64,000 bases of DNA from sequence record MN895436.1; one strand, 5' to 3'. This DNA is from Escherichia phage teqsoen. The notes beneath the pieces are model-generated. The model did no database searches. It had not been told where the DNA came from and saw nothing but the letters and a program-made list of their open reading frames with translations. Made by a program: the position numbers and the translations under genes. Shown here in pieces: positions 31,808-44,370 of the stretch (its first letter is position 1; each line of letters begins with the position of its first letter).

Positions 31808-32220
31808 TATTTTCCAGCCTCAAATGCTCGCATGTCTTGAATATGCTTAATAGCAAATCCGCGTGATTTGATAGCATCAAGAGCTCCGCTACAGAAATCT
31901 AATAAAATTCCCCAATATTGTAATGAAGTATCAACCTTTAAAACATCCTTATCAGCTGATAGAACTGTCTTCATTTCTGATTTCTCGTAACGATCCATAC
32001 TAAATTCATCACCATCTCCTCGTCCCGAGTAGTAGTCTAATTTAGCTTTAAGAGCAACTTTTTTCTGTGCATCAATTCTAAGCATTTCCTTTTTAATACT
32101 TGAATGCTTATTAAGCCATTTACTATATAACATCACATTATTAGCTGCTTCATACTGTAATTTAGTCGAATCTATAAACACATCTTTCTTCAATTCTTCT
32201 TGAAGATCTTCTAATCTCAT
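31807..32220 (-). CDS. uvsY: UvsY recombination mediator protein
   Basis: 137-aa ORF beginning MRLEDLQEELKKDVFIDSTKLQYE, matching T4 UvsY. Confidence 0.9.
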   Translation of the reverse strand: MRLEDLQEELKKDVFIDSTKLQYEAANNVMLYSKWLNKHSSIKKEMLRIDAQKKVALKAKLDYYSGRGDGDEFSMDRYEKSEMKTVLSADKDVLKVDTSLQYWGILLDFCSGALDAIKSRGFAIKHIQDMRAFEAGK

Positions 32221-39601: not shown

Positions 39602-39606
39602 CAATG

Positions 39607-39636
39607 GGGACCTTTCGGTCCCCATATTTTTATTTA
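39607..39636 (+). terminator. Intrinsic terminator after gene 54
   Basis: GGGGACC-TTTC-GGTCCCC hairpin followed by ATATTTTTATTT; it overlaps the stop of the convergent minus-strand ORF. Confidence 0.7.
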
Positions 39637-39920
39637 CGGAATGAAATAAAAGCAGCAACTGAAGCAACTAAACTGTCTTCAATATAAACCTCAATTTTTA
39701 CCGGAGCTTCTGACTCAAATTTACCTGTTACTATACCCTGAAAAATACTTTCAGTCTGTTCTGGCTTTGAAAAATTTTCAGAAGGAAAAATTCCGAACTT
39801 TTTATCTGTTCCAAAAATTTTAATAAATTCATCGTAAACTGCTTCATTAAAAGCATTATCAGCAGGAATAACGCCTTCAACTACAAGTTCTTGACCTAAA
39901 AAGCGCAAAGAAGATTTCAT
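39630..39920 (-). CDS. Hypothetical protein (downstream of the alt genes; T4 alt.-3-like position)
   Basis: 96-aa ORF with an ATG start. Confidence 0.55.
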   Translation of the reverse strand: MKSSLRFLGQELVVEGVIPADNAFNEAVYDEFIKIFGTDKKFGIFPSENFSKPEQTESIFQGIVTGKFESEAPVKIEVYIEDSLVASVAAFISFRK

Positions 39921-39980
39921 TTTGTGTTCCTCATGTTATGCCAGTAAGACTACTATAACACAACACGAGGGACTTGTAAA

Positions 39981-42038
39981 CTACATTTTGAACTTTTTAG
40001 ACATTCCGTTGATGTTAACCAAAGAAGCCAAGATTTGAGAAACTTCGTTTTCCTCTTCTTTTGATTCTTCTACAAGGAATTGATTAAATCCAGCCATTGG
40101 ACGAACTTCACCAGTTTCCATTAGATGGTCGCCATCATATACCGATTCCTCTAATTGTTCAGAAGGAGGAACGATTGTACCTTCTATTAGATACTTGTTA
40201 TAAGCAGTTTCTTTCATAAAGTACGTGCTCACTTTATTAATCTTCAGTAAAATTCCACGCGGTAGAATAACTTCAGCTTCTGATGGAAATCCTGATAAAT
40301 GACCTGGAACGATAACTTTGATTCGCTCAGCTCCTTTAATTACCATACCCACGCTAGTTTCAGCATCTTCATTAGCATATGTAGAATGACTACCCATATG
40401 CATCAAATCTTCTGCATCAACGGAACCTTCTCCTTCGCCAGAAAATACTGCGCCGGAATCATCTAGAGCCATATAGTTTTTACCGTGCTCACCGAAAATA
40501 TTTGGTTTAAGCGATGTGGATACGAAGTTCTTGAAATAGAACATTTTGTTTTCAATATTATGACGCAAAGTTTTAAAGGTAACTTCTTGTCCACGGTAAA
40601 GTGTAGTTCCTGGAGGAAGAACTGAACCTTTAGCGAATGCAGAATCCAACGTCTCGATGTGCTTAATAGCACGTTCCATATATTCTTCACGGGTAGAATC
40701 TGGTTTACCCAAAAGGAACGAGTTCATTTCAACATATGAATCAGCACAATAATCTTCAATTACGTCAGATTCAGCCTGAGTTAATCCTTTTGGAGTTACT
40801 TCAGTACTTGCGTATTCATATGCCTGGGCAGCAGATTCATTAATCAATTTATAAATGCCATTCATGACAAATTGAATAATAGCTACCTTTTCATCTGGTG
40901 TGGCTTTAGAACCTTTAACTAAATCATTAATAATTTTCTTAATAACATCAAAGCTATTAGAAATATTAATGTCAGCAAGATCGCTTAAAATTTTATCGGT
41001 TTTATAATCAAAGAATTCTTTATTCTTTAAATATTCTTGAGAACCTTGATATGTTATATCGCTCTGCAGCTTGATAGATGGATCACGTAAACGTGCATGG
41101 GCCAATGCAATATGATTTCGGAAGCTTTCTAGTTCATAATCATTAGATTTAAAACGAGAAGCACTCCTCATACCACCGATAGCTCCTTTGCCGAAGTTTG
41201 AACCAATCTGAATAACGCCAGAGTTCATTGGTCCTTCTGCTTTATATACCGGAACTTTAGATTCAAACTCTTGATATTTCTTAGCGGCGAAGCTATCACC
41301 CTGAAGTGAAGCATCGACAGTAGAATATTGAGCTTGTGCTGCTAATCGACGACTAATTTTAGTTTTCTGAATAACAGCTTGATCCGTGCGCTTATCATTT
41401 TCTAAAGCAATAGAAGCAGCAACAGCAACAGCTTTAGGAACAGCATTACCTGTTTTAACGTCTACATAAACATCACCAACCTTTGATTCAACTTTTGTGA
41501 ATAACTCAGTTGAAATAGGAGGTACACCTGGAATGTCTTCTAAATTGGCATTTTTACGGTAAACCATAATATATGCATATTTCTTATCATAGTCCCAGAT
41601 TTCCTTTAAGAGAACATATCGACCTGCTCCTTTAGTACGTACTAAACGGTCAGCAATAACTTGCATTTGACGAGCTGCGCCATTTGTTTTACTCTTTAGT
41701 ACGCGGAATAGGCATGCGTCGATTTTATACTGTTTCATTGTTTGAAGAGCAGTATCAAAAACGGCATTAATGACACCAATTGGATTTCCACCCAAGTTTT
41801 TAAGCTTAACTAATGATAGTTTCTCATTGACACCTATCATTACGATATGCATCATTTTATCGCCTGGCTTAACGTTTTTATTTGTATCACCACCAGAGGT
41901 GTATGTACAAAATCTAAATCCAGGAAGCACGCTTTCTTCGCCGGCTTGGATAGCAAAAATTTGTGGTATTTTATGCTTAGGATTTAAGTTAACAACCGGC
42001 GCCGAAGCGCCGTCAAATAATTCTGTAATAAGTTCCAT
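39981..42038 (-). CDS. Alt-like ADP-ribosyltransferase paralog (second copy)
   Basis: 685-aa ORF whose N-terminus (MELITELFD...GDKMMHIV) and C-terminal LMETGE region parallel the adjacent Alt; ART-type motifs LYRGQ, FVSTSL and EAEVILPRG. Confidence 0.8.
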   Translation of the reverse strand: MELITELFDGASAPVVNLNPKHKIPQIFAIQAGEESVLPGFRFCTYTSGGDTNKNVKPGDKMMHIVMIGVNEKLSLVKLKNLGGNPIGVINAVFDTALQTMKQYKIDACLFRVLKSKTNGAARQMQVIADRLVRTKGAGRYVLLKEIWDYDKKYAYIMVYRKNANLEDIPGVPPISTELFTKVESKVGDVYVDVKTGNAVPKAVAVAASIALENDKRTDQAVIQKTKISRRLAAQAQYSTVDASLQGDSFAAKKYQEFESKVPVYKAEGPMNSGVIQIGSNFGKGAIGGMRSASRFKSNDYELESFRNHIALAHARLRDPSIKLQSDITYQGSQEYLKNKEFFDYKTDKILSDLADINISNSFDVIKKIINDLVKGSKATPDEKVAIIQFVMNGIYKLINESAAQAYEYASTEVTPKGLTQAESDVIEDYCADSYVEMNSFLLGKPDSTREEYMERAIKHIETLDSAFAKGSVLPPGTTLYRGQEVTFKTLRHNIENKMFYFKNFVSTSLKPNIFGEHGKNYMALDDSGAVFSGEGEGSVDAEDLMHMGSHSTYANEDAETSVGMVIKGAERIKVIVPGHLSGFPSEAEVILPRGILLKINKVSTYFMKETAYNKYLIEGTIVPPSEQLEESVYDGDHLMETGEVRPMAGFNQFLVEESKEEENEVSQILASLVNINGMSKKFKM

Positions 42039-42041
42039 GAT

Positions 42042-44132
42042 TTATCCTTGAACGAACTTGTAAGGCATGTTTGTAATATCTATGCAAGACGCAATAATTC
42101 CAAGAGATGATTCTACTTTCTGTTTAACATTTGATGAAACAAATGATGCAAAGTCAACTCTATCTTCTATATCACCTGTCATTGTAACCAATTCACCAGT
42201 TTCCATTAAATGGTCTCCGTCATAGATTACTGATTCGGTGAGTTCTTCTGTGGTCATAACTTCAGCTTGAATGAGTTTTGTATTATTAGATGTTGTTCCG
42301 TCATTATTAGAAGCATCAGTTATTTTATTAACTTTGACCATCAATCCGCGCGGTAGAATAACTTCAGCTTCTGTTGCTATTCCGAGACTTCCTGGATATA
42401 CAACATTAACTTTATGCGCGCCGTCAATTGCCCATCCTATTTGAACTTTAACGTATTCAGGATTTTCTTTATACGCTCTTATTTCGTTTGGATTAATAGT
42501 TATTCCTTCTTCATTTTTATCAACTGTTAATTCATTACGAGCTTCTGGTTCTAAAAGACCAATACCAGCATGTGTAATTCCAAAACGCCCAAAAATGATA
42601 GGAGTTAAAGAAGTAGATACAAAATTTCTGAAATAGAACACTTTATTTTTAACTAGCGCTTCGTATATAGGAGCAGTCATACTTTGAGCACGATAAACTG
42701 TAATGCCTTCCGGTATGCGGTCACCATTTTCAAAAGCTGAATCTAAATTATTTATAGCAGATTCAATTTCTTTTTCACTCATTACATCATATCGTTCTGG
42801 ATTGTAACGACCTAAAAGAAGATTATTAATGTCTGTATATCCTGAACCACAATATTCTCTAATGCCGCGCTTTTGTGATGGAGTATATTTAGAACCATCA
42901 CGGGCAATAGTAATATCAATCATTGGACCAGCACCAATTCCAGAAAAGCTATAAATCATTCGTTTGAGGAATTTAGTTTTTGCTGCATTCCAGGCATTTT
43001 TAGTTATTTCTTCCCAGACTTCATCTGGCTGCCCTTTACGAGTTTTATTATGTTTATCAAGCCAATTATCTTTATATTCTTCAAAGAGTTGATTAACAGC
43101 TGCTGCGTATTTCTCTAAACATTTTATTGAAGTAGTTGGTTCATTTTTAATCGCATTAAGAATTACATCTTTAATTTTTTCAGAAACTTCATTAACCTCA
43201 CTTTTTGAAAAGAATTTATAGTCATAATGAAGTTCATCTGCAGTTCCTTCAGCAATAATTTTTGCTGCCTTAGTTTTAGAAGCTAATGAATTAATTCCAA
43301 GCTTCATTTCTTCTGCTTCGGGAATTAAAGGAGCGGTAGCAGGTTTATTGAAATTAGCTGCAGTAGATTCATACTTCTGGAATAATTCACTTTCAAATCT
43401 AGAAGACTCTAACGATTGACTTTGCGCAATTGCTCTACGGGAAATTTTAACTTTAACGATTACAGCTTGATCAGAACGTTTATCATTTTCTTGCGCAATA
43501 GATGCTGCAATTGCCTCATTTTTAGTTACTTGGGCTCCAGTATCTTTATTGATATAAACATCACCGACCTTCGATTCAACCTTAGTAAAGAGCTCGGTAC
43601 TAATTTCCGGAACCCCTGGAATGTCTTCTAGTGATACATTTTTGCGATGTATAAGAATATATGCATACTTTTTATCGTAATCCCAGAGTTCCTTAAGAAG
43701 GACGTATCTGCCACCTGAACGACTACGGATAAGTCTATCAGCAATAACTTGAATTTGTCGAGCTTGACCAGCGGTTTTAGACTTAAGAATACGGAGCATA
43801 CAGGCATCAATTTTATACTGACGCATTGTTTGCATTGCAACAGTAAAAACTGAATTGATATAATTAATTGGGCTTGGACCAAGACCTTTCAATTTAGCAA
43901 TTGAACCTTTAGCAGTTAATGTAAAAGGAACAATATGCATCATTTTATCGCCCATCTTTAAATCACGATTAGTATCACCTCCAGATGTATAGGTACATAA
44001 ACGAAAGCCTGGTTGTTCAATTGCATCATCAACGTGAACTGAAAAAATTTGCGGTATTTTCTTCTTTGGATTTAAGTTTGTAATCGGAAGAGTAGTATCT
44101 TCGTCAAATAATTCTGTAATGAGTTCCATCAT
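42042..44132 (-). CDS. alt: Alt ADP-ribosyltransferase (virion-packaged, modifies host RNA polymerase in T4)
   Basis: 696-aa ORF (start may be the second Met) beginning (M)MELITELFDEDTTLPITNL; ART motifs VYRAQ, FVSTSL, EAEVILPRG. From recollection of T4 Alt, this copy is the more likely ortholog. Confidence 0.8.
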   Translation of the reverse strand: MMELITELFDEDTTLPITNLNPKKKIPQIFSVHVDDAIEQPGFRLCTYTSGGDTNRDLKMGDKMMHIVPFTLTAKGSIAKLKGLGPSPINYINSVFTVAMQTMRQYKIDACMLRILKSKTAGQARQIQVIADRLIRSRSGGRYVLLKELWDYDKKYAYILIHRKNVSLEDIPGVPEISTELFTKVESKVGDVYINKDTGAQVTKNEAIAASIAQENDKRSDQAVIVKVKISRRAIAQSQSLESSRFESELFQKYESTAANFNKPATAPLIPEAEEMKLGINSLASKTKAAKIIAEGTADELHYDYKFFSKSEVNEVSEKIKDVILNAIKNEPTTSIKCLEKYAAAVNQLFEEYKDNWLDKHNKTRKGQPDEVWEEITKNAWNAAKTKFLKRMIYSFSGIGAGPMIDITIARDGSKYTPSQKRGIREYCGSGYTDINNLLLGRYNPERYDVMSEKEIESAINNLDSAFENGDRIPEGITVYRAQSMTAPIYEALVKNKVFYFRNFVSTSLTPIIFGRFGITHAGIGLLEPEARNELTVDKNEEGITINPNEIRAYKENPEYVKVQIGWAIDGAHKVNVVYPGSLGIATEAEVILPRGLMVKVNKITDASNNDGTTSNNTKLIQAEVMTTEELTESVIYDGDHLMETGELVTMTGDIEDRVDFASFVSSNVKQKVESSLGIIASCIDITNMPYKFVQG

Positions 44133-44152: not shown

Positions 44153-44160
44153 TATTTATA
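44153..44160 (-). promoter_or_regulatory. T4-type late promoter (TATAAATA on - strand) for alt
   Basis: + strand TATTTATA about 21 bp upstream of the alt ATG with a GAGAGG RBS; consistent with Alt being packaged in virions. Confidence 0.55.
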
Positions 44161-44165
44161 AAATT

Positions 44166-44183
44166 AAAGGCCCGAAGGCCTTT
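44166..44183 (-). other. GC-rich tetraloop stem-loop between gene 30 cluster and alt
   Basis: AAAGGCC-CGAA-GGCCTTT inverted repeat overlapping the stop of the 62-aa ORF. Confidence 0.45.
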
Positions 44184-44370
44184 AATAATCTATAGGTAAG
44201 AGAGTACGATATATTTCAAACTTTGGACCTTTTTCATAAGCATCAAAAGTTTCTGTGAATTTATTATAAGCATATGCATCTATAAATTCAATCATGATTT
44301 GTGATACAGAAGTAGAAACATCTCCACCTTCTTTTTGAGCCACGACAATTGTTTCTAAGTAAGCTTTCAT
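44182..44370 (-). CDS. Hypothetical small protein
   Basis: 62-aa ORF coupled by ATGA overlap to the DNA ligase gene. Confidence 0.55.
   Translation of the reverse strand: MKAYLETIVVAQKEGGDVSTSVSQIMIEFIDAYAYNKFTETFDAYEKGPKFEIYRTLLPIDY

Follow-up and report, generated by a model that had tools for sequence, protein, structure and literature searches.

Why would a T4-like phage carry two full-length genes for what looks like the same kind of injected enzyme, one directly behind the other? This question is raised by Escherichia phage teqsoen (sequence record MN895436.1), of which we have analysed a stretch of 64,000 nucleotides, referred to below as the window. Two adjoining open reading frames (ORFs) of 685 and 696 amino acids on its minus strand had been put forward, from the letters of the DNA, as Alt-type ADP-ribosyltransferase (ART) genes in tandem; we refer to this as the original prediction, and the ORF list confirms both frames to the nucleotide (Table 1). 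The core of that proposal, that both genes encode catalytically intact Alt-type, arginine-specific R-S-ExE mono-ADP-ribosyltransferases, holds on the strength of the domain hits, the invariant R/S-T-S/E-x-E residues, the predicted C3/Vis/iota-like folds and the purifying selection described below. We further consider it likely that the locus is the ancestral two-gene alt/alt.-2 module of Tequatrovirus, and that its products are late, packaged, processed and injected ARTs that probably differ in their targets.

The phage is T4-like and belongs to the genus Tequatrovirus. Over a stretch of ~5 kb around the gene pair it matches Escherichia phage vB_Eco_CP at 98.0% identity and RB32 at ~97%. The pair sits between gene 30/alt.1 and alt.-3/gene 54, which is the position expected for the Alt family: the DNA ligase gene 30, like alt.1, lies on the upstream, higher-coordinate side, and genes 54, 48 and 29 lie past alt.-3 on the opposite strand to the pair. 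Their positions identify the longer gene (696 aa) as alt and the shorter one (685 aa) as the gene annotated alt.-2 in RB32 and RB3. The proteins of these two phages (YP_803136 and YP_009098580) are likewise 685 aa long, are encoded in the same position at ~97% nucleotide identity, and differ in nothing of substance from the one found here. They are annotated as 'Alt-like RNA polymerase ADP-ribosyltransferase; similar to alt', and the GenBank note for RB32 speaks of an 'apparent insertion in alt.-2; similar to alt'.

How alike are the two copies? Over 716 columns they share 41% identity (BLASTP, E 2e-163) and are homologous end to end, which excludes the idea that their shared termini are short chance matches. 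The family phrog_802, 'Alt-like RNA polymerase ADP-ribosyltransferase', spans both proteins (alt.-2 residues 1-685, E 5e-256; alt residues 1-695, E 1.5e-273). The N-terminal Tevenvirinae_ADPRT domain (PF26846) was not reported in a direct Pfam scan of the window proteins; it was assigned via two near-identical proteins that carry both PF26846 and PF03496, namely the cluster representative P0001 (772 member sequences, 99% identical to alt.-2) and P0116, which matches alt. The homology covers the whole N-terminal domain of ~240 aa and peaks at 74-78% identity at residues ~100-200. The description of the N-termini as near-identical over ~70 aa was too generous, as the first ~68 aa agree in 44 of 70 columns (63%) and the exact strings are confined to MELITELFD and GDKMMHIV. 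At the C-terminal end the conserved segment is real, with YDGDHLMETGE identical in both copies.

Divergence had been located in the central ~400 residues. This is right for the middle ~170 aa, where identity is 12-16%, the sequences are essentially unalignable and BLAST returned no hit between the alt and alt.-2 segments; the alt.-2 middle domain is predicted to be all-helical, with a predicted local distance difference test (pLDDT) score of 64-90. It is incomplete for the rest, since the ART domains have diverged too: they are 34-50% identical, apart from an insert between S-T-S and E-x-E that is ~6% identical.

The next question is whether both copies retain the residues of a working ART. 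The ADPrib_exo_Tox family (PF03496) scores 71.5 bits in alt.-2 and 129 bits in alt, with a gathering score of 23.4. The R / S-T-S / E-x-E motifs that had been read from the two ORFs are all present (LYRGQ / VYRAQ, with FVSTSL and EAEVILPRG in each). They correspond to R481 (42690-42692), S506-T-S508 (42609-42617) and E588-A-E590 (42363-42371) in alt, using the 696-aa numbering, and to R482 (40593-40595), S507-T-S509 (40512-40520) and E587-A-E589 (40272-40280) in alt.-2. In an alignment of 19 family members, with 33-99% identity to the query, the Arg of (L/V)YR does not vary, nor does either Ser of S-T-S or either Glu of E-x-E, and neither copy is therefore without a catalytic Arg, Ser or Glu. 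The alt sequence together with the family profile places YR and E-x-E on their catalytic counterparts (YR and E-x-E/Q-x-E) in CDTa, CPILE-a and a C3-like ART, and structure prediction gives both ART domains a C3/Vis/iota-like model that conforms to the ART fold.

In T4 Alt the substitution E577A abolishes ADP-ribosylation (PMC11404850). The GenBank translation of T4 Alt has the motif as E574-M-E576, so the published E577 is one off, and we assume that it denotes the second Glu. The residues ahead of E-x-E differ between the two copies, GIATEAE in one and GFPSEAE in the other, and read APSNEME in T4. In the Alt proteins the spacing from S-T-S to E-x-E is 76-78 residues, with an extra insert of ~35-40 aa; in Ia and C3 it is ~36-38 residues. 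Besides this larger spacing, Alt differs from the other PF03496 toxins (C3, Vis, VIP2, iota-Ia and CDTa) by an extra N-domain, a helical middle domain and propeptides that a protease removes, and it is delivered by ejection from the phage head, whereas the toxins rely on secretion or a binding component.

Is the second gene under selection? We compared this window with RB32, RB3 and KIT06. The ratio of non-synonymous to synonymous substitution rates (dN/dS) is 0.023-0.042 for alt.-2, from 54-86 synonymous vs 5-15 non-synonymous differences, and 0.035-0.059 for alt. By evolutionary criteria alt.-2 is a working gene, constrained as much as alt. That it could instead be a decaying, non-functional duplicate as in T4, its frame merely still open, strikes us as very improbable. 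T4 and ACG-C40 do have fragments only, yet elsewhere the 685-aa frame is intact in ~400 records at 90-99% nucleotide identity, its catalytic and processing residues are invariant, and on its dN/dS of 0.02-0.04 we rejected the pseudogene reading.

The original prediction gave T4 a single intact alt, accompanied by short ORFs named alt.-1 and alt.-2, and comparison with the T4 record bears this out. These ORFs (NP_049810 and NP_049809; phrog_23015 and phrog_15247), which a T4 GenBank note calls an 'old duplication of the first part of gene alt', are the frame-split start of the alt.-2 gene found here, covering its first ~348 nt (~116 codons) at 96.5% nucleotide identity. The frame is broken near codon 54, where an A-run has lost 1 nt. 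A second deletion of 1,699 nt, between 9-nt CTAAA(A/G)AGT repeats, takes out the rest of alt.-2, the whole ART domain included, and the T4 sequence resumes at the last 20 nt of the gene (T4, L001 5085-5135, compared with positions 41671-41721 and 39980-40030 of the window). From these alignments we infer that the single alt with alt.-1/alt.-2 stubs in T4 is a derived, degraded state.

We looked for the two genes in a collection of 50,697 phage records, counting those with at least 80% coverage of the queried segment. The alt.-2 middle-plus-ART body is found in 401 records, the alt body of the type present here (RB32-type) in 341, the T4-type alt body in 175 and the whole 5-kb two-gene interval in 342. 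The novelty that the original prediction implied for an intact second copy thus falls away, for this is the majority arrangement in Tequatrovirus, already annotated and discussed. The alleles occur in all combinations: RB32-type alt with alt.-2 (this window, RB32, RB3 and KIT06), T4-type alt with a full alt.-2 (PM136 and Ec_YwIITB1) and T4-type alt with the remnant (T4 and ACG-C40).

The pair can be traced further. In Escherichia phage 04086, a Dhakavirus, three Alt-like genes stand in tandem (L007 733-7284), encoding 631, 693 and 608 aa. The one nearest the ligase gene belongs to a third lineage (~34% identity to either window copy), the next is alt-like (66% to this alt) and the last is alt.-2-like (50% to this alt.-2). 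The same alt/alt.-2 order in both genera implies that the duplication is older than their split. The annotated start of the third Dhakavirus gene (MPIFILKLSL) looks truncated or miscalled. A further match to alt.-2, at 92.9% identity, is found in the last 127 nt (32046-32172) of the 32-kb record of Staphylococcus phage SAJK-IND (MG010123.1), and is most likely contamination or a mis-join of that record.

How would the two genes be expressed? Downstream of the alt.1 stop codon the minus strand carries, in order, a GC-rich hairpin, the T4-type late promoter motif TATAAATA, a GAGG Shine-Dalgarno sequence and ATGATG. The hairpin is terminator-like, and could insulate alt from upstream early transcription; a scan for consensus terminators did not report it. 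A conserved terminator upstream of alt has been described by Nolan et al. 2006 (PMC1524935). Of the two start codons in ATGATG (44127-44132), the first is 2 nt and the second 5 nt away from GAGG. The better Shine-Dalgarno spacing of the second ATG, at 44129, and its agreement with T4 and RB32, where MELITE... is annotated as the alt start, suggest that this is probably the true start, giving a protein of 695 aa.

The end of alt reads ...CAA GGA TAA, and only a 3-nt gap, with neither promoter nor terminator, precedes alt.-2. The simplest reading is probably a bicistronic late alt-alt.-2 transcript from TATAAATA. A second exact TATAAATA is found within the alt coding region (42749-42756, minus strand), ~710 nt upstream of alt.-2. 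It is either an internal late promoter or a chance occurrence; the motif is found 17 times in the window vs 9.5 expected, so chance may account for this one.

The signals for packaging and processing can be compared with those of T4, the only phage for which the presence of Alt in the mature head and its ejection into the host are known (PMC9026906, PMC5694885). T4 Alt (NP_049811) is an NAD+--arginine ADP-ribosyltransferase that is packaged at ~40 copies per head and injected. In mass spectrometry of T4 heads it is found to lose 6 N-terminal residues (ITE-6) and 63 C-terminal residues (LTE-619), leaving a mature protein of 68.2 kDa (PMC5694885), and the prohead protease gp21 cleaves after L/I-x-E (PMC9026906). 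The mass that we compute for T4 Alt residues 7-619 is also 68.2 kDa, so the cleavage sites are placed correctly. Both sites are retained in alt (MMELITE|LFD and ...ELTE|SVIYDGDH, LTE-633) and in alt.-2 (MELITE|LFD and ...QLEE|SVYDGDH, LEE-631), with predicted mature sizes of 70.1 kDa and 69.1 kDa. In the family alignment the Glu residues of the cleavage sites and the propeptide motif Y-D-G-D...E-x-G-E are invariant. The LMETGE segment, which had been expected to mediate processing, lies inside the removed propeptide, 11 residues past the mapped cut (PMC5694885); being itself an L-x-E sequence, it could be a secondary cleavage site.

Constraint on these proteins is strongest in the N-terminal domain. 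Compared with T4 Alt, alt is 96-100% identical per 50-column block over the first ~250 columns and 92-97% identical at the C-terminus; the amino acids of the N-domain itself depart from T4 Alt only near the start, and dN in this domain is close to 0 among alt.-2 genes. Such conservation would fit a part that contacts conserved components of the phage head, and not host targets. Querying 1.84 billion representatives with the N-domain gave 69 clusters. Of the 56 that were scanned, mostly full-length, 54 have PF03496 and no other Pfam family was seen, which makes the N-domain an Alt-specific module and rules it out as a general delivery adaptor for other effectors.

Does alt.-2 have to be an injected effector at all? 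It might act in the producing cell, or be mainly a structural part of the prohead core for which catalysis is secondary. Alt has indeed been called both an enzyme and a core protein (PMC11404850), and our literature search found no proteomic evidence that alt.-2 is packaged. We nevertheless think this improbable, given that alt.-2 keeps the gp21 motifs, the C-propeptide motif YDGD..E.GE and an N-domain that is 67% identical to that of packaged Alt, and that its catalytic residues are invariant too.

The course of events under the module reading that we favour would be as follows. Both proteins would have four parts: a 6-residue propeptide followed by an N-domain of ~235 aa, a helical middle of ~170 aa, the ART domain, and an acidic C-propeptide of 54-63 aa. 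Late in infection TATAAATA upstream of alt would drive a single transcript over both genes, with alt.-2 translated from its own Shine-Dalgarno sequence within the end of alt. The prohead core would take in both proteins and gp21 would trim each after ITE-6 and after the C-terminal L-x-E; both would then stay in the head and be ejected with the DNA into the next host, where they would ADP-ribosylate arginines of host proteins using NAD+. The conserved N-domain and processing sites would serve delivery, and the diverged parts are the middle domain, the insert of the ART domain and the residues ahead of E-x-E. Given this divergence, it is most likely that the two enzymes recognise different host targets.

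An alternative is that alt.-2 is a redundant copy, packaged and active, with targets no different from those of Alt (chiefly RNA polymerase alpha), and adding only dose or robustness. The two proteins share a catalytic class (E-x-E, arginine-specific) and their delivery features, and the loss of alt.-2 in T4, or of one body in the hybrids described below, is tolerated. What makes redundancy unlikely in our view is that the middle domains have no detectable similarity, that the insert between S-T-S and E-x-E is barely conserved, and that strong purifying selection conserves each lineage separately and each can be traced to Dhakavirus, a pattern expected for distinct functions.

Several points weigh against the picture of two injected enzymes with separate targets. 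The difference in targets is read from divergence only, and co-transcription, packaging, cleavage, injection and activity of alt.-2, like its target differences, are inferred. For no alt.-2 protein did our literature search yield virion proteomics, enzymology or genetics. A reported Jiaodavirus proteome contains one abundant ADP-ribosyltransferase and is uninformative on a second Alt. When alt.-2 alone was searched against PDB sequences (phmmer) there was nothing at E <= 1, and its link to solved structures comes from the family profile and predicted fold only. The divergent loops are modelled with low confidence as well (pLDDT below 50 at residues 517-540 of alt.-2). No late-promoter consensus lies directly upstream of alt.-2; lacking an adjoining promoter of its own, its expression rests on read-through from alt or on the internal TATAAATA. 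Finally, loss of alt.-2, or its fusion into a hybrid, has happened repeatedly (T4, ACG-C40 and three hybrid lineages), which makes it dispensable on some hosts at least.

The hybrids are metagenomic proteins (P0003, P0005 and P0006) encoded by single genes directly downstream of alt.1, with an alt-type 5' part and the rest of alt.-2 type. For P0003 and P0005 alt.-3 follows directly, and for P0006 the contig as read stops just past the gene. Tracks of informative sites show a clean single switch in each of the three, at nt 660-669 (L003 5001-7061), nt 546-558 (L004 4001-6055) and nt 150-159 (L005 4001-6061), and alt.-3 is found directly after the hybrid gene in L004 and L005. Read from these switches, the hybrids are deletions that arose by unequal crossing-over of the tandem N-domain sequences, each at a different point. 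An origin as assembly artefacts was rejected as unlikely, because no exact shared run exceeds 25 nt and two of the hybrids, with alt.-3 right behind them, lie in long contigs of 65 and 110 kb. The proposal that the genes are long direct repeats that could recombine is therefore half right. As DNA repeats they are poor, with only the first ~690 nt alignable (67.6% identity) and 25 nt as the longest exact run common to both; natural recombinants exist all the same.

The alt gene itself has been exchanged in part. Its nucleotide identity to T4 alt is ~98-99% (95-100% per 20-codon window) up to ~nt 713 and again from ~nt 1858, and 35-78% per 20-codon window within the cassette between them (42273-43416). 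At the protein level the middle domain is ~30% and the ART domain 62% identical to T4 Alt. The upstream gene is thus the positional ortholog of T4 alt, essentially identical in N-domain and C-propeptide and with the same R/S-T-S/E-x-E and gp21 sites, but its central ~1.1 kb (the middle domain and most of the ART domain) is another allele. For that reason what is known of the targets of T4 Alt is not simply transferable to this alt. At its left edge the cassette starts where the N-domain homology between alt and alt.-2 ends, and where one of the hybrids has its crossover. The locus therefore has the look of a delivery frame that is conserved and of middle-plus-ART bodies that can be exchanged within it.

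This raises a wider possibility, to which we give somewhat less than even credence: that the alt locus is a cassette system of injected effectors that is driven by recombination, much like the variable internal-protein locus, and that each body has its own set of host targets. The strictly conserved frame might then consist of the N-domain and the two propeptides, and carry the interchangeable bodies. Tequatrovirus has at least three types of body (T4-, RB32- and alt.-2-type), and Dhakavirus a fourth. If this were true, most natural relatives of T4 would inject two different ADP-ribosyltransferases, and laboratory T4 would be a degraded one-enzyme variant. The known list of Alt targets would then cover only one of several effector specificities, and the target sets of the other bodies could possibly include anti-defence targets.

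How much of this is new? Tandem Alt paralogs, and the idea that they have diverged and act on more targets, are already known from database annotations and from a 2026 paper on phages 6phi13 and SHFML-11. It describes a pair of Alt-like paralogs that share 43.29% identity, close to the 41% found here, and proposes functional divergence with a wider target range (PMC13600099). Duplicates of alt in RB49, 44RR and T4, full-length in 44RR, were reported by Nolan et al. 2006 (PMC1524935). Tandem paralogs of moderate identity recur beside alt among T4-like phages (44RR ORF187c, which is full-length, RB49 ORF183c, Dhakavirus 04086 and 6phi13/SHFML-11), with a copy number of 2 to 3. The phage-encoded ModA and ModB of T4 are likewise RSE-clade ARTs with a part in host takeover (PMC9503650, PMC10468400), but they are small early proteins that are not packaged and have neither the PF26846 N-domain nor propeptides. 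We did not find the T4 deletion junction, the natural hybrids, the allele cassette or the selection estimates described in literature searches; these are minor, descriptive additions.

The finding therefore changes little, since the annotation of hundreds of genomes already includes tandem Alt paralogs and published work has commented on them. It may still be useful as a matter of perspective. Nearly all knowledge of Alt comes from T4, which lacks alt.-2 and bears the less common alt allele, and the common natural state is two constrained and probably co-packaged enzymes. In the half that faces its targets, the alt of RB32-like phages is not the T4 enzyme. This is relevant to studies of early host takeover and of ADP-ribosylation targets, and to the Tequatroviruses used in phage therapy.

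Table 1. Features of the alt/alt.-2 locus, in window coordinates
Feature	Position	Strand	Description
alt.1	44182-44370		Pfam Phage_blade; on the upstream (higher-coordinate) side of the pair
Hairpin AAAGGCC-TTCG-GGCCTTT	44166-44183	-	GC-rich; overlaps the alt.1 stop codon; read from the sequence
T4-type late promoter motif TATAAATA	44153-44160	-	exact motif; 21 nt upstream of the first alt ATG
alt, RB32-type allele	42042-44132	-	696 aa from the first ATG; positional ortholog of T4 alt
alt N-terminal domain	43410-44111	-	aa 8-241; after the MMELITE propeptide (44112-44132)
alt central cassette	42273-43416	-	end of N-domain, helical middle domain, most of ART domain
alt ART domain	42234-42899	-	aa 412-633; ends at cleavage motif LTE-633
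alt C-terminal propeptide	42045-42233	-	63 aa; acidic, isoelectric point 4.2; one residue unlike T4
alt/alt.-2 junction	42039-42052	-	...CAAGGATAAatcATG; Shine-Dalgarno AAGGA in the last two alt codons, TAA, 3 nt, ATG
alt.-2, second full-length Alt paralog	39981-42038	-	685 aa; from the ORF list; ortholog called alt.-2 in RB32
alt.-2 N-terminal domain	41322-42020	-	aa 7-239; after the MELITE propeptide (42021-42038)
alt.-2 helical middle domain	40797-41321	-	aa 240-414; no detectable similarity to the alt middle domain
alt.-2 ART domain	40146-40796	-	aa 415-631; ends at cleavage motif LEE-631
alt.-2 C-terminal propeptide	39984-40145	-	54 aa; acidic, isoelectric point 4.6; starts SVYDGDHLMETGE
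alt.-3	39630-39920		DUF5498; on the downstream side of alt.-2

Two further signals lie on the downstream side of the pair. A perfect hairpin with a 9-bp stem is found between the convergent genes 54 and alt.-3 (39604-39625, both strands), and is likely a bidirectional terminator. Matches to sigma-70-like promoters are not enriched in the region (21 vs 18.2 +/- 4.5 in shuffles) and were not used, with the exception of one site before alt.-3. This is a T4 early-promoter-like sequence, TTTACA-17 nt-TATAGT with an upstream TG, at 39952-39980 on the minus strand, right after the alt.-2 stop codon; with such a site ahead of it, alt.-3 may be expressed apart from the late alt genes.

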